Positions 8,489 through 26,456 of a stretch of DNA of 64,000 bases are shown piece by piece; position 1 is the first letter of the stretch, and each line of letters opens with the position of its first letter. Position numbers and translations under genes: made by a program. The stretch is from Halocafeteria seosinensis (Eukaryota): assembly GCA_001687465.1 (NCBI GenBank), contig LVLI01000101.1:310001-374000 (forward strand). The letters run 5' to 3'. The notes beneath the pieces were generated by a model that made no database searches, was not told the DNA's origin, and saw only the letters and a list, made by a program, of their open reading frames with translations.

Positions 8489-8760
8489 GAAACAAATACA
8501 CAGGCGATCAAGACCATACCACTATTCGCCTTTTCTCGTTTGCGGTCATGCATCGCATGATATACCTTGCCTGCTGTTCCGGGTGCGTCAACCCGAGCCC
8601 CATGTGACGTCACTGCCTTCAAGCTCCACCCCTCTAGGGCACAGTGCCACAATGATAGCGCCCATATCAGGATTGTGTGCACATATGGTTTCAGACGAGG
8701 ATCCTTTCCGTACCCTTGGGAACTTAAGATAGGCAGGCATCCCCATGAATACGCCATAGA

Positions 8761-11700
8761 ATGAGAGAAAGAGCTGCTCTGAGGGCGCCTCTCACGGGGC
8801 TGAGATACATTATATTGGGGTGTATTATCGCTTGTACAGAGATTGCTCAAGGCTCACCCCTTGCACCAGAGTTATCTGCAACTGATGACGCCCAAGATGA
8901 TCCCGGGAATACAGATGATGACAATGGGGGAGGAGGGAAAAAGAAATCGAGCAGTGGAAGTCCTGACCAAGATGACAGTGAGGTGACAATGGATGGCTTC
9001 CTGTCCTCTCTCTACGTCAATATTGTCATTTTCGTGCTCCTCATGACTCTGCTGACGATGCTGAGGCGGTGGATGCCCGAGTTCTTCCAGCCTCGAATGT
9101 ACTCTGTGGACGACAAAGGAACCGTATTTCGACTCTCAAGTTCCCAAAAAAACAGTGATAGATATGAGAGCAGTTTGAATCGCTCAAACGCAGCTACCAA
9201 CGTGATGTAGGTAGTGCAGGTCATTGGAGTATTTTGGCGTCACTCGCTCGACTCTCGTTTTGGAATTGACCATGCAGTGCGCGAAATGACGGACAGGGAC
9301 CACCCCCGATTCCTGAGAAATGGTGTGGATTTTATTGGATGTACTTTATCTGGAAAATCCCACTGAGCACTGTGTTGAACAAAGTGTACGTACACAAGAT
9401 TGAAACTATCACTCTTTTTTCCCAAGCAGATAAATAAGCCCTTAATTGTCGTATTTGTGTCATCTGGAACAGTGGTGTGGATGCGTATATATTCCTGCGG
9501 TTTGTGCAAAAGGCAGGTCAACTATTCGGAATTGTCTGCACAATACTGGGTAAGCAAAGCATTTGATCACGATAACAGATAAACTGAGGCTCCAATGGAA
9601 ATGCTGTGCGGGCCCTTTGTTACAGGATGTGGAATCATTCTTCCCATCAATGTTATCTTCGGAGAAGCCCATGAAGAGGAGTTCGAAAAACTGTCGCTAT
9701 CAAACATTGCGGAAGGTCAGCGTATCCTTTGGGTACATGCAATCAGTGTTTGGGTGTTTACTTTCGCGGTATTCGCTATTTTGCTGGAATTGGGGAGAGA
9801 ATTCGCGGTGCTGCGTCACAGGTACCTAAGGTACAATATGTACCATCGCACTACAGATAACAAAAGGCGGAACTCTACGTCTGACGGAAAGAAAAGACGA
9901 AAGTCTGCAGACGAAGGCACATCTAAACAAACTGGCATTACATCGTCCCTTGGTGGGGTCCGGATGTCTGCGCGGACAGGGAACCACGTGTCCCGATCCG
10001 AAGGGCTAGCCCACGAAAGGCCCTCCCATCTTACACAACTGTCAAGAAAATTACCACCGTGGGTAAAAGAAGAAGATGAGTCTCTCGAAGCGCCCTTCAT
10101 ACGGAACCCTCGTCCGTATTCTATAATGGTCGAAAACCTCCCTTCGTGGGTGAATTGTGACGCACAACTTTACTTCTTCTTCGATTACCTTTTCCCCGGT
10201 GAAGTATACTGTGCCTCTCTTGTGTCGTTTGCGGACAAAGCAGATGCTTTGTTCGAGGAACGCAACACCGTGCTACGCTCACTAGAGCAGACAGAGCATT
10301 TGGAGAAGAAGGCAGGCGACAAGAAAATTGAACCTGCCTTCAAGAGAAACGTATCTACATCGGAAGAAACAAAAGGTAAGCATGGCAAAAGGAGTGATTA
10401 ATTCCGTTCTTCTAGGAGGCAATTGTAAGTGTTTGGTTCGCTTGTCTTGTGGCTATGCAGACAGTGATACAGTTGCTCTTCGCGTGAAAGGACCTCGTGG
10501 CGAAGGAGAGACAGCGAGAGAAAAGAGCTCGATTACTATGGTCTTATGTCCCCCGGGAACGCAGTGGTTTATCGATTGGTTTTGTTGTGGCCCCTTTTAC
10601 CCTACTCTCTGTTGTGGTTGTTATAAGAGAATTTGCAGATGCTGCGATGACCAAGGGAGGCATGAGGAAGAAGCATTGGAACTACTTGGAGATGAATTTG
10701 AAAAAGATGATGACAGCAGTGAAGACGAAGGGGAAACCAGCTATCGTCCAAAGGGTAGGTCAAAGGAGTCGGGTATCTTGTCGCGGCGCCAGCAAGGCTG
10801 CTGTCACCAAGCAAATCGTGTTCGAGCAATGCTATATTTGGAGCGATCTTTAAGAGTAACTACGCAGAAGCTTGAACGATATAGACAAAGAGCATGGAAA
10901 CAAGTTCGCAGACGCATAAGCGAAGAGTTTGAAGCGTCCATGGAGGATGAAACTTCTTCAGGAGCAGTTTCAAGTGAAGGCGTTTTTGCATCTCCCCGTA
11001 CCTCCGATGATGACCTCGAGAGAGATAGTGAAATGCCAGTTCGTCGTAGTAGACGAAGATCGGTGACTCCTGATCAAAAGCGGGAGAAGAAACCTTCAGC
11101 AGGAAATGGGTTCGGTAGTAAAATCACTCAAGCCGGCAAGAACGTATATGACAGGGTGGCGTTTACGACTGAGGTTCTTACAGGGATTGAATGGAGGAAC
11201 AAGCTCACTGAAGGCGACGACTCGCGAGGGTTCCGTCCTTCCTCTACGGGATTCGTCACGTTTCGCACCATGACAGCAGTCTCCGAAGCGGTACGCATGA
11301 CTCTTGTTCCAGAACGAGCTGTGTTTGACCCTGCACTTGCACCGGAGTCCAAGGCGGAAAGCCATATCAAAGATTGGACAGATAATGAAGCTATCCAACT
11401 CGCGAAGTCCGTGACATCGCATATTTTTTCTCCTTTGCAAGCTTTAGGAGAAGTAGTGGATATTGGGAGGCATCGCAGTGTTGAAGCACGCCGCGCTCCC
11501 GGACCGGAAGATGTAAGCTTTGTACCTGTTGTGTGCGTGTGTGTGATTGTCCAGTATCTCACCAGTGTTCGGGTTATGCAGATACACTGGTCGCACGTTA
11601 CTGTAAAAGAGCAGCTGAGGCAATCCCGTCAATGGACCACATTCTGGCTCACTATTCTTTTGCAGTTCTTATACACGGTTTTCGTGTCGGCGGTCTCCTC

Positions 11701-12949
11701 CCTGGTAACACTAGAGAATCTAACGAAACTCTGGCCCGCTCTTGGGGAGTTTGCTGAGCAGCATCCGTTTGTCCGGGGACTGATCAGTGGGTTTTTGCCT
11801 ACGCTGATCATCGAGAGTATACTTGCTTTGGTGCCATTTCTTATGGAATGGTTTGGATACCTGGAGTATATGCCAACCTACTCGCAAATTGCCATTTCCG
11901 CTTCGTGCAAGTATTTCATGTTTAAGGCATGGCAACTTATGTTCGTCTTTTTGATTTCGGGGACAGTGATCGATACATTCGAGTTTATCCTCCATGATCC
12001 TCAGAGAATTGTCACGATGCTTGGGAAGTCATTGCCTAGTTTATCTGCCTTTTACATTAACTTGTTGATGCTTCGAACGCTTTCAATGCTTCCATTACTG
12101 ATGCTACGGCCGTTTTGGGTCATACTGCACTATCTCCAATTTCGCCCGAGTTTGTTGAGCTCGCCGCGTTACATCTCTCCTGTAGATGAGACCCAAAAAG
12201 AAGACAGTGGTACCGCCCCAATGCTGCAAGCACCACGTAATGCCGCAGCTGCTCCAGCGGAACAAACTCTTCAAGAAAAAGGGGGAAACAAGAGATCAAA
12301 GCGTACTTGGCAACTCTGGGACATGACAAGGCGAGAATATTGGGAAAATATCCTTTTATGTGGTGGAGATTTTTACTACATTTACCATTTTACAAATGCA
12401 TTGATTGCTTTTTTAATGGGAATCACATACTCATCCATCAACCCGATCATTGCCCCCGTGGCCGCTTGTTTCTTCTGGCATGCGAGCTTCGCTTGGAAGT
12501 ACATGATTCTCTATGTACATCACAAATCGTGGGAAACTGGAGGTCTAATATGGCCCAAAATGGCTCGGCGAGTGAACGTGTCGCTTGTTGTTTATCAACT
12601 GACAATGATGGGAATACTTGGTCTCAAGCAGAGTCCAAGCACTGCGGCTGTTTTCCCTCTTCTGTTCATTACGTGGTTCTTTGATAGATTCCTACAGAAG
12701 TGGCTTGAGAAACCTGCAATGTCTTTATCGAAAGAGGAATGCCGCCAGATTGACGATTCCTATCCCTCAAGTTGGTGCGCTGGTATGACGGAACCTGTGT
12801 TTCGATCGTTGAAAGAATTAAAGGAGACACCCATGCCAGATAAAGCACGAAGAATGTGTTCTAATTCAGCGTATGTTCGTCCTAGCTTGGACCCCAACAA
12901 CGACTGGAGTGCCCATTCCATTTCGACGAAGAACGTGCTCTATTACTGA
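8761..12949 (+). CDS. OSCA/TMEM63 (CSC1/DUF221) mechano/osmosensitive cation channel, paralog 1
   Basis: Signal-peptide-like N-terminus, TM0 followed by FFQPR, GVDAYIFLRF, ILPIN, LWVH, YSIMVENLP, GFVTF, APGPEDIHW, ITYSSINPII, ETGGLIWP. Five GT-AG introns. Confidence 0.93.
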
Positions 12950-13378
12950 ATTTTACCAGTGGCACTTCGATGACATAAGAATTTCGATCACCCACTATCG
13001 AATGTACTGCAATCATCGAATTCTATGCATACTCGTACCACTCGTACTTGACTACCATTACGTAACCTCCAGACAGTATCTTGAACTCGTCAGTGGNGGT
13101 AGTTGTTTTATCGACGCGGGTCCTTTGACATTTTACCGTACCATCCAGGCAAAAACGTCGTTCGTGGTTCTTCACCGACTGACGCCTCCTGTGGCGTCAG
13201 AGGCTCGTGGAACGTGGAATCGGCGATATCGTAGGTTGTACAACCCTGAAGTTGAAGTTGTCCACTACCACGTCACAGTTGTTCTTCGTTCTTGTCCGGG
13301 TCTTTTAGGGTGTATTCGACTGCATTTGTCGGTTCAAACCCGTGAGAAACACTATTCAACGTGAACGGAGCAACAGGA

Positions 13379-16300
13379 ATGAAAACGGAAGCGGCTATGG
13401 TGGCGTTGTGGGTGCTCTTGGCCTCGGGAACGACAGCCGAAGAGCACTTTGAGGATTCAACTGGGCGTCGATTGAGCGATGAAGACAACAGTGATGAGAA
13501 TGTGCCATTGGATGGGTTCATCTCGTCCATTTACGTGAACCTTGTCCTGTTCGCAATCGCCATTGTGTTGGTTTGCGTGCTTAGAAGAATCTTCCCGGAA
13601 TTCTACCAACCTCGATCTTATGTCCCAGATGACCACGGAGCCATCGAACGGAGGGAGCTTCCAGGGCAACAACACCATCATCATTACAAGAGAGAAGAAG
13701 ACTATGTGACCGGGGAGGCATCTACCAGCCAGTTGGAAGATGCGCCGATCTCGAGGCGGTCATCCGGGTAAGTACTTTCCGAGTGACTTACTAAGCATGT
13801 TGTGATCTCTTACAGCTTTGTAATACTGTTTCCCACAGACAACGAATCGACAAAGGTGGACCTCCTATCATCCCAGAACGTACTCGCGTTAGCTGGATTT
13901 GGTATGTATGGAGCCTACCACTTAATACGGTTTTGAACAGGGTGTAAGTAGTGATGAATCATATCAGTCAAGTTGATGACGTTTACGTGTTTGACTACGG
14001 CAATCGTGCAGTGGTCTAGACGCGTATATGTTCATGAGGTTTGCCCAAAGAGCTGCGCAACTCTTTGTTGTATTCACTATTATCGGCTGCGGGATCCTCC
14101 TCCCGCTCAACATTAAGGGTGGAACCAATAATGAAGACGGGTTTGCCCATTTGTCGACAGCGAATGTAGCATCACGTCAAGGAATTTTGTGGGTACACGC
14201 GCTGAGTGTCTGGGTTTTCACGTTGGCAACCTTTGTCCTACTCCTTGAACTAGGCCGGGAGTACGTCGTGCTTCGTCATCGCTATCTCCGTTACGGAGTA
14301 TACCACCGCACGACATCGCCTTCACGCCTCGATGTGGAACAAAGGTCGAGCTCTGCTGCCGAAAGCGGTAAATCTACCGGTGCCGAAGCCCCTGAACAAG
14401 AGGCCGCGAGTGGAAAGTGGAACTCTCGGGAACCAACAACAGACCCGATCAAGAAGAAACTGCCGCTGTCTAATTGGTCATTTGGCGCAATTCCACCACT
14501 ACAGCAATCACAGATACCAAGTACCGTTTCCGCTCCCAACCAACCCATGCTGTACAGTGTAATGGTAGAAGACCTTCCGGCTTGGATCAGCTGCGATTGG
14601 CAGCTTTACCAGTATTTCGACTTCCTATTCCCGGGCCAGGTGCAGTCCGCGTCACTAGTCCCTTACGCGAAAAAGGTTGATGGACTCCTTGATGACAGGA
14701 ATTCTACCTTGCAGCTGCTGGAACGAGCAGAACATTTGCGCACATATAGTGACGATAGCTCTGACACAAGTTCTGAAGCAAGCATCGAAAAACCTTTGAA
14801 AGACAATGAACAGCCAGCTAGCCTTCCGGCTTACGGCGGGACGAGCTCAACATCAGAAGAAAAATCGGCTGAAGAAACGGACTCATCTCCTGCAAGTGCT
14901 GAGAAAGATGTCCATATGGTTCTTTTCCCACCGCTGTTGCAATGCTGCACGGACTACGCATGCTGTGGTCCCTTTCCACGTACGCTTTGTGGTGGCATGT
15001 ACAATAAGTGTTGTAGGTGCTGCGACGACGAAGGCAAGCACGAACGTCAGATTCTTGACGAGCTGGAAGATGAATCCCCCGACATAAGTGAAGACCCGTG
15101 TTGCGATCTGGGAGATGACAGACCCGGGGCCCCAAAGAAATGCTGTTACAAGGGTCGTCTTGTTAAAGCATCGAACTATCTAAACAAGGTCTTGAGCATT
15201 CAGTCGGAAGAGCTGAATTCCTTCCGCTCTCTTGCGAAGCATCAACGGCGACGAAGGCTCTCACTTGATGTGGGCGCTACTGAAACTGGAGCAGAAACAA
15301 GTCAAAAGCGCCATGCAGCTAGCTTTAACTCCGTGAAGAAGCACATGAACCAGGGGCTTTCTTATTCTACGGAGGTTGTTTCCGGCCCTCAAAAACGTGC
15401 TCTGGATGCGAAGGAGGGGTTCGCTCCATCAGCTACCGGCTTTGTTACGTTTAATAGCCTTCGAGCAGTTCGAGAAGCCGCCCTGTATGGGAAAAAACAG
15501 TTCAACCCCATTCTATGTGATCGATTTTTTGAGCTTAACAGCGATCGGCAGAAGAACTTACGAAGAAATACGAGAGCAGTACAACTTGAACATGAAGCAG
15601 CGGTGGTGCGGCCAGCACCTGGTCCTGAGGACGTAAGCATCATCTCGCATATCGCTATTGTTTGGACAATTCTCTGATATCCTTGATTCCTTTGTTAATG
15701 CAGATCTATTGGCCCCATGTGGCCGTAAAGGAACCAGTAAGAATAACTCGTCGATGGATTATGTTTGGTGCTACACTTGTTCTCCAAATATTCTATTCAG
15801 CCCTTGTGATAGCCATATCTTCGCTGGTAACGGTTGAAAACTTGGAAGAGGTAATCGGAGGTCTGAAACCTTTGATGGAAAGTAATAGTTTCATTCGGGG
15901 ATTTGTTACTGGTTTCGTACCTCCGTTTGTCATTCAGTACATTCTTTCGTACTTGACTCCTCTTCTACAATGGTTCTCAACTCTTGAGTACCCACCTACG
16001 AACTCTGAGATTGCCCTGTCTACTTCTGCGAAGCTGTTTCAGTTCAAAGCTTGGCAATTGATGTTCGTGTTCACTATATCTGGCACTGTTTTGGACTCCC
16101 TAGATACCATTATACACCACCCTGGTGACATTGTTAACATGCTGGGAAGGTCCTTACCGCGGCTCTCCGCCTTCTTTATTAATCTGCTGATGTTGTGGAC
16201 GCTGTCTGGAATGCCCTGGGAGATCCTGAGAATTTATGATCTGGGATGGTTTTATCTTTACTTCAGAAAGCAGATGCTTTTACCCGTATTAAACTATATC

Positions 16301-16990
16301 CCCCTGGTAAACAAACTGCACAAAGGGAACGGCAAGGTAGCGAGAGAGAACACCTATCAACTATGGAACATGACCCGGAGGGAGTTTTGGGAGCAAGTTC
16401 TGCAGTACGCAGGGCCATTCTCCTGGCCTTCTCAACTCACTAACAGTTTGCTTGCGTTTCTTATTGGGATCACTTACGCATCGATAAACCCAGTGATCGC
16501 CCCTATCGCCGCTCTCTTCTACATTAGCGCGGGTTTTAATTGGAAGTACTCATTCCTCTATGTAAACCACAAGTCTTGGGAGACTGGTGGGACTGTTTGG
16601 CCTCTAATGGCTCGTCGGATAATTGCTTCATTGATAGTATATCAGCTCACACTTATCGGGCTGCTCGGGTTAAAAAAGAGCGGCAGCTCTGCACTTGTAG
16701 TTCCGCTACTATTCATCACAATTCTCTACGACCGCTTCCTCCAGCGGAAAGTCGAAGATCTTGCCGAAGTTCTCAGCCCTGCGGAGACTGAGCAGGGCGA
16801 TGCTGAAGAAACAAAGTCGTCTGCGGTTAGCGAAAATTCTTTTGAGTCTTTGGAGCAGTTATCTCAATATCAGGTTCCAGAAGAAAAGCGGGCGATGTCA
16901 ACAGATTGTGCGTATGTTAGGCCCAGTTTGCTCCCGAAGAGCGACTGGAAGCCAAATGCTATCCCTACTAAGAAAGCACTCTACTTCTAG
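13379..16990 (+). CDS. OSCA/TMEM63 (CSC1/DUF221) channel, paralog 2 (tandem duplicate)
   Basis: Same motif series (FYQPR, GLDAYMFMRF, LLPLN, LWVH, YSVMVEDLP, GFVTF, APGPEDIYW, ITYASINPVI, ETGGTVWP). Three introns. Confidence 0.93.
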
Positions 16991-19622: not shown

Positions 19623-22600
19623 TCAGCCATCAGTATAGTCTATGTCGTTGGACTCACTGCTTTGGTTTACACTGTTTGAATACCTTCGTCGAAACGCTTT
19701 TTGAACACGGTCCAACGAGTATTGCGACTGCGGCCCACGCCACTTCACATGATACACAGGTTGCATTCCATAGGCCTTCGCTAGGGGGACATTCCCTACA
19801 TAGCTGCACTCAAAATTCGCCGGAAGGTTAGCAGCGACAGCTGCAAAGGCTTGGCTGCAGTAAACACTGCCTGGAGGCGTGATAGGCTCGATGCGGGCCG
19901 CGCGGGACGTATGCACTCCTGTATAGTTTTTCACTCCTGTTATCGGATCAACGAGAGCATAGACTGGTGCAGCATGCAATGAAACCCTAATTTTAAGATT
20001 ATCCGGCAAGCCAATTGATTTCCATTTTACCTTCGACACTAGGTCTGAGAGAGTCAAGGCAAATTCTCCCGCATCGGAAATTCCAAAGAATACAAAGTAA
20101 AATGCATCTCCCCATGTATTCTTGACACACGGTCTCTTTGAACTGGGTAGATCTTCAATCATTGCAGCAACTGATCCCATAAAGTTTTCAACAAAACTGA
20201 GAACCTCGTGCTCTCGGAGCTTTGAGTATCCCACGATATCGGCGAACAAAATACCCATGATCAATCGTGGCCTCTCGGCAGGTCCACCAACGACTTGCAG
20301 GCTATTCGTCCGCTTATTTAAGCTGGCGGGGCGCTCGTCACTCTCTTGACTCATGCTCCGACTCCGTGTGATAGATTTCTCCCCGGAAGATGTCCGGCGG
20401 AATTGGGTGTCCAAAGGGTTCTCGTAGCAGTCCATGAACAACACTCTGAACGGAACATCGTAGTGCGCCCATGCTTGCACGGCAGAAGGCATTTGCGAGG
20501 ACGAAAGTCCGCTTAATAGGTAGCTCTGTGATACACTCGCACCTGAGTCGCTACCGTTTTCAGCTCCAAACTCATCGTCTTGCAACAGGCGCTGCAAGTG
20601 ACCGAGCCTGGCCCTCAGTATAGTGCCTGACGAAGAGCCCCTTGGGGAGCCGGTAGATGAGAACGATTCCCGTAGTTGCAATGCAGAGTTTTCTGAATTC
20701 TGCTCGTGGCGCGGGGGAAATGCACTGGCAGTACTAATAGCTCGCTTCCTTCCTGTGGTGCTTTGTTCCGTTGTGGCGAAATTGATGCCGCCACTGCTCT
20801 CATTCACGTCCGTAGTTGGGGAATTGGACGGACGAATATAGCTTGATGAATCAGCAGCGCTTGCAAAAGGTGAACTTACACTAGGCAGGACCGGTGCGAG
20901 TCTCTCGACACCACCGTCCGAGAGGTTCTCACGAGACTGGTGCGATTGACCAGGAGATTTTTGCGATTGAACGTATATGCGCTGGATGGACGTGTCCAAT
21001 CCTTTAGCTCGCATTGTTGCGAGCCCGTTGAGCATCAACGAACAATAATGATCATTAATTTCCAAAGTAGCCGGCACTAAGTCGTTGGCAATGTCCACTC
21101 TCACGGCTTTGCTTAACAGATTTGACACCCGCGAAAGCGGATTGTTTTCATCGGCTTGTTCTTCCTCTTCCTCATCATAAGGACTGGAAGACGAGAGATC
21201 CGAATCTTGACGAATGGCATCACCTCCACCCGAAAGGCGACGTATTAGTTGTTTCACGTGAGCATTGCTCTTTGGCTTCGCTGTGACTACTTTGCGAACG
21301 CTGTTCGGTGCGAGAGTGGGCAACCCTCCTGAGCTATTATCAAACCTCTTGGAAAAATATTCATGCAAGACATCCATATGTTCCTTCTCAGGAATAGGTA
21401 GGACTATGTAAATTTCACCACCATGATCAAGGACCTCTTCCAAAAAGAAAACGTCACTCAGGGTATTGACGGTCGCAAATGCAAATTTGATATTTGATCG
21501 TGTTATGATTCTCCTCAACTGCTTTTGGAGCTTTCGCACGCCCTCTTTCGAAGGAACATAGGAGGATTTCTCGCTCGACAGCAGTACTCCTACTGAGGGC
21601 AGGCTAAACAGGGAATCAAAACTCCTTGCGTATTCATCTGCTTCAGCACCCACATACGCATAGCGCAGCAACAGCATTAACTGACGCCTGGATGAAGACA
21701 GTTTGACGTAATCGTTTCCGACGAGGTTTACTGCCTTTTCATAGTACTCCCTTGCCTGTTCAAAATTTCCACGTATTATGTTCGCTTCTCCAATCGTCGC
21801 GTATACCCAATATCTCGAGGCACTGTTTTGATCATGAAATTTGAGCTCCTTTTGGCAGAGGCGCAGTACATCATGGGCAAGTTGTTGAGCAGTGCCATCT
21901 GATCCTCCTAACAAAGCCGTTGTTGCAGCATTGATGCCCAAATAGTAAGACGTCTTTCCCCCTCGTTCATACGCTTCGCGATATATTTGATGTGCACGGT
22001 CCACGTTCAACTTCCTTGTTTCTTCTTCTTTCGCTTGAGTTGCCAAATCCTTGTATGCCCGGGCTAGTAAACCAGCTGTTTCGTCCGAGGTATCACCATT
22101 TGTTCGAACTTCTTCGAGTATCTTGATGGCTCGCTCGACAGATCCCGCCTGTGTAAGGAAGCACGGTAACAACCAAATATCAAAAAGGAAGGCGAACTAT
22201 TTCTCCGATAACATCCTTTGCCTTACTTGTGTTAAGGACCTCGCGTGTAGAGTGCACAGTCTTCGTGAATTCTCATATTTCTTGCAGCCATGATATAGGA
22301 CATCCTCCGCCATAAGCGGTTCACCTTTAGAGATTAGTTGCTCTCCAATCACGTGATAAAATGTTTCCGTTCGAAGCGAAGGTAGTGTGTGCTGATAAAT
22401 GCGTTCTATATCAGCTGCACTGAGGTCTGTCATCCGTAATTCCTGCATTGCCAGCAAAGAGACGTGAGGAGCCCGCGTTCGATAATCAAACACCTCAGGA
22501 TTACGAACAGTAAGTAACCTATCAGCGGTATCCCGTTCACTTTCGTCCCCAACCTCATTATCAAAAATAACTTTATTAATATTTCGGCCCGTTAGTTTCG

Positions 22601-23059
22601 GCATCTCACGCTCACGATGCTGGTCGTCACCATTCTCGGCAGGTGGGCCAAGGGCTTTGGCAGAAAACGTCATAGATTTCTTTAGAGCGCCAGGTTTTGA
22701 CGGTGAAGGCTCCCTATGACGCAACTCGGGGTCTGAACATATATTGAGGTTCTTGAGCTGCAGTCAACAGCATTCCTACATTGAAGAAATGAACAAGAAA
22801 GCAAAACCCTAACCGGCGCTTACGTGAGAGGACAGATAGTCATCCTCATGAGGCGCAGTACGCCTTGGATGCGAACAGCCTGTGGACCAAGACCCATTAT
22901 CTTCTGGGTCTGTATCAGAAATATCAAAGGAATTAGAATATCTCCCCAACTGAGCCTTTCGGAACCAAACTTACCTCGTTGTCCATTTTGAAGCGGCACG
23001 ACGCTTTGATGGTCTGAACGTCCATTCAGACGACTGGGTTTGGACGACTCGCAACCCAT
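19623..23059 (-). CDS. TPR-S (MAP3K TRAF-binding/DUF4071-like) + SLOG-like + class III nucleotide cyclase protein, about 1075 aa, 4 exons
   Basis: Exons 23059-22975, 22909-22824, 22757-22227 and 22148-19623 splice in frame. Motifs: MGC N-terminus; GLLARAYKD, YYLGINAAT, YWVYATIGEA, SSSRRQL; SDVFFLEEVLDHGGEIYIVLP; cyclase LFADIVGYS, NTWGDA, RVSLHAAPV, SRAARIEPITPPG, YVGNVPLAKAYG. Confidence 0.9.
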
Positions 23060-24580
23060 TCCACTAGCAAATCTGGATATCCAATGCTCCCATCTGTACA
23101 GCGACTTAGGGGTTGAGCTTCAGCTCGCACTTGGTCAGCCACACCGTATAGCACCAACTCAGGAATTCAACGATTTTTCAGCCAACGGAAACGAGCAGTG
23201 TCTGCATCAGTGGTTGACGAATCAAAATGAACCAGCATTGCAGCCATACACCGTTTATCTTCTTCAATAACAGAGGGGAATTTAACAGCGCAAACTTGAA
23301 GTCACCCGCATCCCTTGAGGACCCCCTCGCACGTTGCGACAAAAAAGACGAAGATGCTGTCCGATTCTCTACAGCATAGAGGTCTTCCGTGAAAATCCCT
23401 TTCCCTCCATACCAAAAAGTAGCTAACGCGCCATCCAACAGTGGGGAACTCGGTCAACTTAGTGCACATGAATGAAGCAAATGACAGTGGTGTGGTTTGC
23501 TTGCCCTGCCACACTCCACTCTCCTCGCAACCGAACCCAGTTGTTTGCCACATAGAAAAAGTAACACGTCTCCCTCATGAAACCCAGCGTATGGGACATT
23601 GACGCACATAATGGAGCTGAATGTACAGTCCTCTTGCCTTACCTCTCAAGAATGGTGCTTCCGCCGGGGGAGTCGTTGGCTGGGGAGTAACTGTCTCCCT
23701 CCACACACAAAGTGAAGGGAAACGTCGAAAAATCTGACAAATACCACTGACAAAGTAGTCAATCTGCAGTGGACCAAACAGACAAACAAGTCTGCCTACG
23801 CGGTGTGCTGCTGTGTGTATCGGCTAACAACCGGCGTCGGTACCCGCGAAACCGGTCGCAAAGGCCCCACCCCGCGGTCCACCCGGTGAGCCACAGGGTA
23901 GAGGAATTTACATTGTACCTCGCAAAATTAAAGACAAAGAAGAAGAGATTCATGTGTTCTCTTTCTCATTGCACAACATTCTGGCCTTCCACGGTGAACA
24001 ACGAAACGGCGAAGAAACGCCACACTACCGGGTACACCGAGTTTAGCCGCCGAGATGATAAACCGGACACACTCATGATGGCAAAACTTCTACTCGTCTC
24101 TGCACGGCACAAAGTTAGTTTACAAGATGGGTATTCATTCCTGAAGCACCAAAGAGATGAGCAATATATGACCGACGTTCCTCTCCGTCCACATACAACT
24201 GTCTACGGGACATGGTGACCGTAAAAGCCAGTTCCAGCCCGACAGTGTGACCAGTCACGTTGATGCGCCGCAGCGTGAAGATGTTGGAGCGGTTCCGGGT
24301 AGGGTTCACTCCTCACACGGCGTAGCGTAGCCTGTGGCATACACGTCTTCCGTTAGGAGCAATACGAATACACACACATACACACAATAGAGTTATGCGG
24401 TGCTGGGTCTGCCGCTTGCGGGCAGACCAGAGTGGTGCTCCGTTGTCTGAGTCCCACTTCTTCTCCAGTAAAGTTCCAGTTTCCCATCAAGAGTCTCCAA
24501 ATTCGCAATCCTATTCAGTGTCGCCTATGATCATCACAGAATGATGGTCCAGATTTACTCAACAAGTTGACAACAACGTG

Positions 24581-24772: not shown

Positions 24773-26456
24773 ATGGCTGCGGCAGCTGCAACGGAGGGAA
24801 ACAGCAATGACCCATCACATAATGCTGAGAAATTGAGCATACAGCAGTTTTCTGCGGACAAGTCACTGTATATACGTCGCGGTAGTGATCAAACGCGTGG
24901 CTATATTGTGATCTTCACCAACAGTGGAAGTTGCTTCGGCATAGTGCCCTTCTTTTTCACGTTTAAGTTGGACAACGATAATCCTGAAGTACCACCGATG
25001 TTTTTCCCACTAGTGGTCGATGCTAACCATGCACAGCTTTACACAACTGTAAATGAAAGGGAGCAATGGAAACCTCAGGCTTCTCAATGGAATGCTTCCA
25101 AGACTGTCTACGATGGGTGCGTATTGTTCACTGGACACAGTGTTGACTGTGGCACGACTGAGAAGATTGCTTCTTGATTGTCAATGCAGAGCTGATGAGT
25201 TAAGGAATTTTCTTAACCAGAATCCGAGGAGTTCGACTCAAAATGGCGCAGACGATACGTCGAATGACAAATCAAAGCAGTTTTCAAAATTCCTGGAAAC
25301 GCTCTCTATCTGGCAATCGGCAAGGAAAGCGTATGAATTCGTCGATAATTTCGGCATAGCCGACAGCGATGCACGCAAAGATCTCAAACGCTATATTGTA
25401 GAGTTCCTCTCAGACTCACAAGTGTACAATTCTGTCATTTCCTCGTTTAACGCACTCTTTGACAGAGTAACGCTTCATCAGGTCACTTCCTCAGAACTGG
25501 CCATTGAACCCCTAGAGAATCTCTCAGCCGCAGACTTGGGCCACGCATTCAGTACCCTTCTCAACACTGTAGAGGATATGAGCACCTCCGAAAACTCGTC
25601 GGAAGGGGGCAAAGCAACAAGTGCCGATGGCTCATTGGCGCTAGGAAAGTCCGACAGTCAGGGTTCGAATGACTGGGAAGTCGGGAGTGGTGGTCCCGAT
25701 TACGGATCAGGTGAAGACCAAAGTGGTTCAGACATAATGAGCTTTGGCAACACTATGGGGCGAGGAAGAGGCCGTGGGCGTGGACGGGCAAGTCTGCTGG
25801 AACTGTTTGAGGGCAATGGCCACGGATTCGGATACCCCCCGAGCTACGGTCGCGGTAGCGGGGGAAGAGGGTTGTCGTCAGCGCCTGATCTGCACGACGA
25901 AGATGACATGGGATATTTTTATGGTGACAATGGCCGTGGCGGCCTGTCTGGATCTGGTCGAGGGGCTATGCGGGGTCGTGGACGCGGACGTGGTGGCCTG
26001 TTTGGATCTGGGCGAGGTGGAGGAGCCATGCGGGGTCGTGGACGTGGGCTTACAGGCCACGGTTCAGGCGGTCTGTTCGACCCAGGTGATTCTCCACATT
26101 ACGGTCCAGATAGTCCACAATACCTCTACAGTCCCACTCCAATTTCGCCCGAATTTTCCCCCGAAATGAACGGTCATGAGCACGACTATGCTGCTTCTGA
26201 CGAAGACGAAGACGCGGGGCCTGGTACACCAGATACTCTTGACGAACTCGCCATGTTGCAAGGGAATTACAGCACAGGAACGGGGAAGCCTAACTCCTTC
26301 CCCAAAAAGCTTAAAGCACGTAGCGGGCCACCAAAAGGAAGAGAAGAAGTGTTGGTAGATAAAAACTTGCAACTTTCAGCACCCGACGCAATGATTGTCC
26401 TGTTGTTTATCATGGTCTCTATCATCTTCGTTCGCGACGTTATAGGGGCAAATTAG
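24773..26456 (+). CDS. Hypothetical protein: N-terminal UBC/UEV-like segment, RGG-rich region, C-terminal hydrophobic tail
   Basis: Two ORFs joined by an intron near 25117-25189. GYIVIFTNSGSCFGIVPFFFTFKL...PEVPPMF resembles the E2 fold. Repeated GRGRGRG. Tail MIVLLFIMVSIIFV. Confidence 0.6.

Follow-up and report, generated by a model that had tools for sequence, protein, structure and literature searches.

How does a protein with the build of a bacterial conflict-system enzyme come to be encoded in a eukaryote, and what might it do there? The question is raised by a minus-strand gene of Halocafeteria seosinensis, whose coding sequence runs from position 23059 to 19623 of the window analysed here, a stretch of 64,000 nt (contig LVLI01000101.1, positions 310,001 to 374,000, assembly GCA_001687465.1). 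Its product combines a TPR-S domain, a SLOG domain and a C-terminal class III nucleotide cyclase, and a first-pass annotation of the DNA took it for a horizontally acquired sensor-cyclase. We suggest that the gene goes back to a single bacterial transfer and that its product would now be a lipid-anchored cyclase switched on through TPR-S, a reading whose chances, taken as a whole, we judge to be evenly balanced.

The TPR-S domain (residues ~141-392, 21609..22442, placed by Pfam and structure comparison) is matched by PF20308 at E 5e-15, with 56.3 bits against a gathering score of 27.6, and by MAP3K_TRAF_bd above its curated cut-off (E 4.5e-8). Among TPR structures ASK1 (5ulm) ranks first, with Z 19.2, a root-mean-square deviation (rmsd) of 3.2, 239 aligned residues and 17% identity. 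These matches bear out the ASK1-like, MAP3K TRAF-binding module named in the first-pass annotation; a generic TPR was rejected on the PF20308 score and the structural ranking. K245, Y268, N285, W326 and E333 are invariant in 9 eukaryotic rows of the alignment and in 6/6 rows of a permuted bacterial family described below, and T330 is likewise kept in 9/9 eukaryotic rows. An AlphaFold model of the whole protein has a mean pLDDT (predicted local distance difference test) of 66.9, with 339 residues at 90 or above.

The class III cyclase expected at the C-terminus (residues ~836-1020, 19725..20279, placed by Pfam, structure and alignment) was found there, with a Guanylate_cyc match (PF00211, E 3e-5) above the curated cut-off. 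Its best fold matches are CyaB of P. aeruginosa (Z 20.6, rmsd 2.5, 179 aligned) and Rv1900c of Mycobacterium, the top Foldseek match, but these are only 15-23% identical to it and have other domain partners. The metal aspartates D849 and D893 and the transition-state R964 align with those of canonical cyclases, and R933 is conserved as well. N889 occupies the place of the base-specifying Lys and S960 that of the catalytic Asn, so that the canonical adenylyl or guanylyl cyclase signature (Lys or Glu with the catalytic Asn) is absent from the protist cyclase; the bacterial family has 86% N and 72% S at the same two positions. Rv1900c has Asn at the Lys position as well. It lacks the catalytic Asn and yet is reported to be active, some guanylyl activity occurring on the side (PMC4886424), and because it works in this state the protist enzyme is likely to be active as a cyclase, cyclic AMP (cAMP) being our guess for the product. 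As a separate observation, P0121 and P0372-P0374, homologues from Cafeteria and a relative that are enlarged by inserts to ~1900 aa, carry Gln instead of the Asn that is usual for the family at the base-specifying position. The cyclase groups with a bacterial NTWGD family (~50-57% identity), away from canonical bacterial cyclases, and solved cyclases, eukaryotic ones included, are 12-27% identical to it, in keeping with the earlier remark that it is unlike the cyclases of eukaryotes.

The alpha/beta domain between the two is a SLOG (YpsA-like) domain by structure comparison and alignment, but it is longer than first drawn, extending from 21602 to 20430 (residues ~395-785) with two inserts. In the full-length model, residues 395-785 score Z 14.9 against YpsA; in an isolated middle-domain model built from the bacterial-family alignment, YpsA again ranks first (Z 13.3, rmsd 3.4, 157/178 aligned), followed by DprA, TRPM2, ShosA and LOG, with molybdenum cofactor (MoCo)-carrier proteins also top-ranked. 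A profile of the bacterial-family SLOG domain matches the EukProt protein P0001 (gb/GECG01000025.1) at E 1e-15. Of the profile matches anticipated in the first-pass annotation, those to TPR-S, MAP3K_TRAF_bd and Guanylate_cyc were obtained, but Pfam placed no SLOG family in the alpha/beta domain of the protein or in 64 bacterial middle domains. A PDB sequence search found no SLOG family either, and Foldseek offered only a weak match (YpsA at best, E 0.005); the fold was resolved only by VIA-align structure comparison. Both inserts are Ser/acid-rich and modelled at low confidence, as seen from alignment and model: insert 1 covers residues ~484-541 (21162..21335), and the Ser-rich insert 2 covers residues ~614-755 (20520..20945) and stands in place of the bacterial WDG..GGT loop.

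Where does this architecture belong? The TPR-S-SLOG-cyclase order is reportedly treated in Burroughs 2015 as a predicted conflict architecture, and the protist gene, judged from its sequence, is a eukaryotic variant of this already known, predicted bacterial architecture. The protist protein is homologous throughout to a mostly bacterial family with the three domains in the same order, so its prokaryotic type was correctly recognised at the outset; the two have the NTWGD and RAARIEP cyclase motifs in common and ~42% identity over 597 core columns. This family comprises 946 clusters (50% identity) at E up to 1e-30, with named members in Acidobacteriota, Cyanobacteriota, Verrucomicrobiota and others, many of which carry an N-terminal RyR domain. 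NCBI labels them 'TRAFs-binding domain-containing protein' or 'DUF4071 domain-containing protein', and the family cyclase is present in 20/401 genomes of one set and 1/251 of another. The permuted Pseudomonadota family (L124-L129, ~500 aa) begins with an NTWGD-type cyclase and ends with TPR-S, and the stretch separating the two gave no SLOG match. Because both domains occur there without a SLOG match, TPR-S would be the constant partner of the cyclase.

The bacterial genes often lie next to signalling genes of other kinds. With our own profiles, a TIR gene was found within the flank in 44/79 loci, within 500 nt in 35 of those 44, and nSTAND1 in 21/79, the 79 loci not being independent of one another. 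The background in five genomes was 18 TIR_2 matches in 26.3 Mb, or ~0.01 expected per 12 kb. A gene with TIR_2 and DUF4062 stands beside the cyclase gene at L002:2012-3529, L022:8043-9614 and 17 more loci, often with an nSTAND1-TPR/WD40 gene after it, and in the bacterial-type protein P0262 nSTAND1, TPR-S, SLOG and cyclase are fused in one chain.

Named eukaryotic members of the family are Cafeteria roenbergensis/burkhardae (four assemblies), Platysulcus tardus (two paralogues) and P0001, all among the best 120-150 matches of each search. About a dozen more environmental proteins carry the motifs of the eukaryotic branch; the assignment of unnamed proteins to bacteria or eukaryotes follows their motifs and clade rather than database records. 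The acquisition is therefore not confined to one protist, as the clade is common to Cafeteria, Platysulcus and unnamed sequences. The eukaryotic homologues form one clade in a tree where they are 11/186 rows (support 100), again in a smaller tree (9/44 rows, support 99), and in a TPR-S plus cyclase tree rooted on the permuted family (9/55 rows, 100/100). The first two sets hold 175 and 35 bacterial rows out of 424; the third, with 29 plus 11 divergent rows, was extended by divergent members from Pseudomonadota and by an outgroup that lies closer. P0197, P0080 and P0261 (partial) and P0128 (dead) were omitted from some trees, and of the later-found homologues only P0372 entered them. In the best 55-row tree the eukaryotes sit inside bacterial nodes with supports of 100/98 and 98/94, the bootstrap not being fully settled, and the H. 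seosinensis protein pairs with Cafeteria (86/91). We conclude that the gene very probably passed from bacteria a single time, into an early lineage of heterotrophic flagellates; the case for this is made by the best tree, the 50-57% cyclase identity and the skewed distribution rather than by formal rejection of other topologies.

One of the Platysulcus tardus paralogues, P0128, has a Met-Gly start and an intact TPR-S and SLOG fold and has lost both cyclase aspartates; this pseudo-cyclase exists alongside the active-type paralogue P0003. Both contain a putative RyR-like insert, scoring only E 0.02-0.03, between TPR-S and SLOG.

The gene itself is genuine. It is spliced from five coding exons and one exon in the 5' untranslated region (UTR), encoding 1053 aa. 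The first-pass annotation had named GT-AG introns of 65, 66 and 78 nt, each of which is confirmed as spliced by assembled contigs, but its four-exon gene overlooked two further introns, one of 66 nt lying in frame and one of 441 nt in the UTR. Contigs X2-X4 skip the 78-nt, both 66-nt and the 441-nt introns; the 65-nt intron is spliced out in X2 and X3, X4 having no joint there, and X1 is unspliced. X2-X4 come from one sample and are taken as RNA because the introns are missing from them. The three-intron model gives an open frame of 1075 aa, and P0001 is shorter by 22 residues, which exposed the fourth coding intron, without a stop in frame; the 1053-aa model differs from P0001 only by E414D. 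The four-exon model was rejected on P0001 and the spliced contigs, and a pseudogene reading was also rejected. Coding variants among the contigs are synonymous in 9/12 cases. The GC content at third codon positions (GC3) is 0.466, inside the 0.447-0.506 span of nine neighbouring open reading frames (ORFs); introns, splicing and host-like GC3 together rule out contamination.

On the minus strand, the non-coding first exon (23643..23807, from X2-X4) has a contig end, not a mapped start, as its 5' limit, and is followed by the 441-nt GT-AG intron (23202..23642, spliced contigs and sequence). Exon 2 (22975..23201, spliced contigs) holds the remaining 5' UTR, the start codon at 23059 and the Met-Gly-Cys N-terminus. 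In its UTR lies a 9-codon, out-of-frame upstream ORF (23064..23093), read from the sequence, which stops 4 nt before the start codon and might exert translational control. The 65-nt intron (22910..22974; X2, X3), exon 3 with a low-confidence N-terminal region (22824..22909, structure model and spliced contigs) and the first 66-nt intron (22758..22823, spliced contigs) come next. Exon 4 (22509..22757) and the in-frame 66-nt intron (22443..22508) are placed by the P0001 match and spliced contigs. Exon 5 (22227..22442; spliced contigs, Pfam, model) begins the helical TPR-S domain, and the 78-nt intron (22149..22226) and exon 6 (19623..22148, 841 codons plus stop) are seen in spliced contigs and sequence. 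Homologue P0002 carries a 25-residue insertion where the 78-nt intron sits, probably because that intron was read through there.

Unlike its bacterial relatives, then, the protist protein has introns, a Met-Gly extension and degenerate SLOG loops with large inserts, and it has neither an N-terminal RyR nor, among the window ORFs scanned, a linked TIR or STAND gene. Remodelling was uneven across the domains. At positions conserved to at least 80% in 425 bacterial rows, the protist protein keeps 62/66 in the cyclase (bacterial median 61), 39/49 in TPR-S (median 45) and 21/39 in SLOG (median 36). The strand-1 loop, described as the nucleotide-contacting loop of the SLOG fold (PMC9503650), has its G and H kept in 0/9 eukaryotic rows, with no shared replacement motif. 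The GxD/E motif, for which substrate binding is predicted in YpsA (PMC6459960), has lost its G and kept D444 in the protist protein, the D being kept in 8/9 eukaryotic rows. All three residues, G, H and D, are present in 351/425 bacterial rows, and just 0-1 of them in 44/425. The Met-Gly-Cys N-terminus is a predicted myristoylation/palmitoylation site: six eukaryotic proteins start with Met-Gly (P0001, P0003, P0128, P0239, P0268, P0374), and a myristoylation pattern (Gly2, small residue 6) fits five of them, P0001 included, and 1/301 bacterial-type proteins. The gain of introns and a eukaryotic N-terminus, as first proposed, is supported, and the transferred protein was likely remodelled such that cyclase and TPR-S were conserved, the SLOG pocket decayed, and introns and a lipid-anchor motif were added.

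These features suggest how the protein might work. N-myristoylation, with palmitoylation at Cys3, would tether it to a membrane from the cytosolic side; a small signal derived from NAD, the likeliest candidate being of the cyclic ADP-ribose (cADPR) type, would be bound by TPR-S and release the cyclase; SLOG would serve mainly as a structural coupler bearing disordered Ser-rich regulatory inserts; and two cyclase domains would pair head-to-tail, the expected product being a 3',5'-cyclic nucleotide, cAMP before others, with base choice perhaps relaxed. We rate the ligand step, in which a cADPR-type signal bound by TPR-S would free the cyclase, a little short of an even chance. The TPR of Thoeris VIII ThsI is proposed as a cADPR sensor (bioRxiv 10.64898/2025.12.03.692087), and in flies cADPR is described as activating Ask1 signalling, with Ask1 a possible receptor (PMC13455253).

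Several points weigh against this proposal. In both the ThsI and the Ask1 papers, cADPR binding is put forward as a suggestion only; the ThsI sensor is described as a TPR and need not be of the TPR-S type. Conservation of the TPR-S residues may have structural reasons, and the window ORFs scanned include no TIR or other source of cADPR. TIR linkage in bacteria is uneven (34/42 loci in Acidobacteriota, 2/16 in Cyanobacteriota, 3/9 in Verrucomicrobiota). Because the D of GxD is kept in 8/9 rows, the eukaryotic SLOG may still bind something. The models of P0121, P0373, P0273, P0002 and P0272 have no Met-Gly start, some of them being likely truncated. As to origin, the trees single out no bacterial donor. 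A first cyclase-only tree suggested nesting, but its approximately unbiased (AU) test gave it no support: a position of the eukaryotes as sister to all sampled bacteria had p 0.946, the constrained tree being 59 log-likelihood units better. In the 55-row set the sister position was again not rejected (p 0.0975), so the horizontal acquisition named in the first-pass annotation is favoured by the best tree but not forced by it.

Among the alternatives, the one that survives best accepts the same bacterial origin and makes the protein a fully domesticated housekeeping cyclase at the membrane that has no nucleotide ligand and is regulated instead through proteins bound at its TPR and through phosphorylation of its Ser-rich inserts; we regard it as possible, if unlikely. 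A single, slowly evolving copy (the cyclase is 90% identical between P0001 and P0002) found in four Cafeteria assemblies is consistent with such a role, as are the flanking housekeeping genes, the large disordered SLOG inserts, the lack of a nearby TIR gene at most cyanobacterial copies, and the cyclase-dead P0128, which suggests regulatory pairing. That K, Y, N, W and E, polar residues of TPR-S, are invariant in eukaryotic and permuted rows argues the other way, since such constancy would fit continued binding of one and the same small ligand.

A more specific alternative is an antiviral relay, in which a host TIR or ADP-ribosyl cyclase alarm raised by giant-virus infection would lead through cyclic nucleoside monophosphate (cNMP) to defence or cell death. 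Cafeteria is a culturable giant-virus host. The bacterial relatives adjoin TIR and STAND genes, or are fused to nSTAND1 as in P0262, and an immune character has been ascribed to clades of cyclases linked with STAND NTPases (Pucsar preprint, 10.64898/2026.08.12.744502). Such a relay would nevertheless be improbable here: neither expansion nor fast evolution is observed, no defence genes occur among the window ORFs scanned, PADLOC gave no match for two exon translations, and in the parts of the literature covered the defence role of the bacterial family is itself a prediction.

It is more doubtful still that SLOG, not TPR-S, remains the sensor with a changed ligand. The intact fold, the retained D444 position and the 44 bacterial rows that have likewise lost most of G, H and D are in its favour, but the strand-1 loop has acquired no new motif shared by eukaryotes and the WDG..GGT loop has been swapped for variable inserts. 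Ancient vertical inheritance with widespread loss, or contamination, is the weakest explanation and very unlikely: the sister position left unrejected by both AU tests, the unassigned taxonomy of unnamed members and the scope of the searches leave it some room, but named eukaryotic matches are only Cafeteria, Platysulcus and P0001 among the matches listed, the best tree nests the eukaryotes in bacteria, and contamination is excluded as above.

The window is eukaryotic in character, its other genes including intron-bearing housekeeping genes. On the plus strand, 8749-12949 and 13346-16990 are tandem genes for similar membrane proteins, the first matching RSN1_7TM (OSCA/TMEM63-type channel). Upstream of the cyclase gene and divergent from it lies a 467-codon ORF (25053-26456, plus strand) with RGG-rich repeats, for which Pfam gave no match.

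The proposed lipid-anchored, TPR-S-controlled cyclase has partial counterparts in known systems. In Thoeris, ThsA (type I, SIR2-SLOG) and ThsI (type VIII, CMP hydrolase plus TPR) each join a sensor for a TIR-made ADP-ribose (ADPR) signal to an enzyme, whereas the protist protein is eukaryotic, has a decayed SLOG pocket and, because its output is a cyclase, would be a relay and not a killing enzyme. ASK1/MAP3K5 is likewise a eukaryotic protein whose TPR module governs a C-terminal enzyme, but its output is a kinase, and the protist TPR-S is much closer to the bacterial family than to ASK1. Pycsar and Pucsar cyclases are also class III and are described in immune contexts with changed base pockets (10.64898/2026.08.12.744502), but their structures score lower against the protist cyclase (Z 13.8-15.1) and they have no TPR-S or SLOG. 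An A/G cyclase is named in a YpsA-family figure legend (PMC6459960). For a halophilic bicosoecid, PMC5447177 reports phosphodiesterases and guanylyl cyclases of the membrane kind, and the passages covered leave the present cyclase type unmentioned. NCBIfam gave no match, a literature query combining TPR-S, SLOG and cyclase returned 0 results, and no description of the family in eukaryotes was found in the literature searched, in agreement with the first-pass annotation; Burroughs 2015, in its text or supplements, or Table S1 of the Pucsar preprint may already include this family or its members in eukaryotes. Neither generic TPRs lacking a SLOG fold, nor a grouping of the cyclase with eukaryotic ones, nor an already known eukaryotic family was found.

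The gene adds a type of eukaryotic cyclase that is not related to the membrane and soluble ones already known, and it clearly illustrates how a TIR-linked signalling protein of bacteria is remodelled after transfer. Flagellates such as Cafeteria might possess a membrane NAD-to-cNMP relay, possibly antiviral, in which a cADPR-type signal is read by TPR-S, although we consider this only a tentative and rather unlikely picture. If true, the protein would be an NAD-to-cNMP converter of a kind not described in eukaryotes, and would provide an enzyme read-out for ASK1-type TPRs as cADPR receptors. With TPR-S wired straight to a cyclase, the TPR sensing of cADPR suggested for ThsI and Ask1 would become testable by a cAMP assay.

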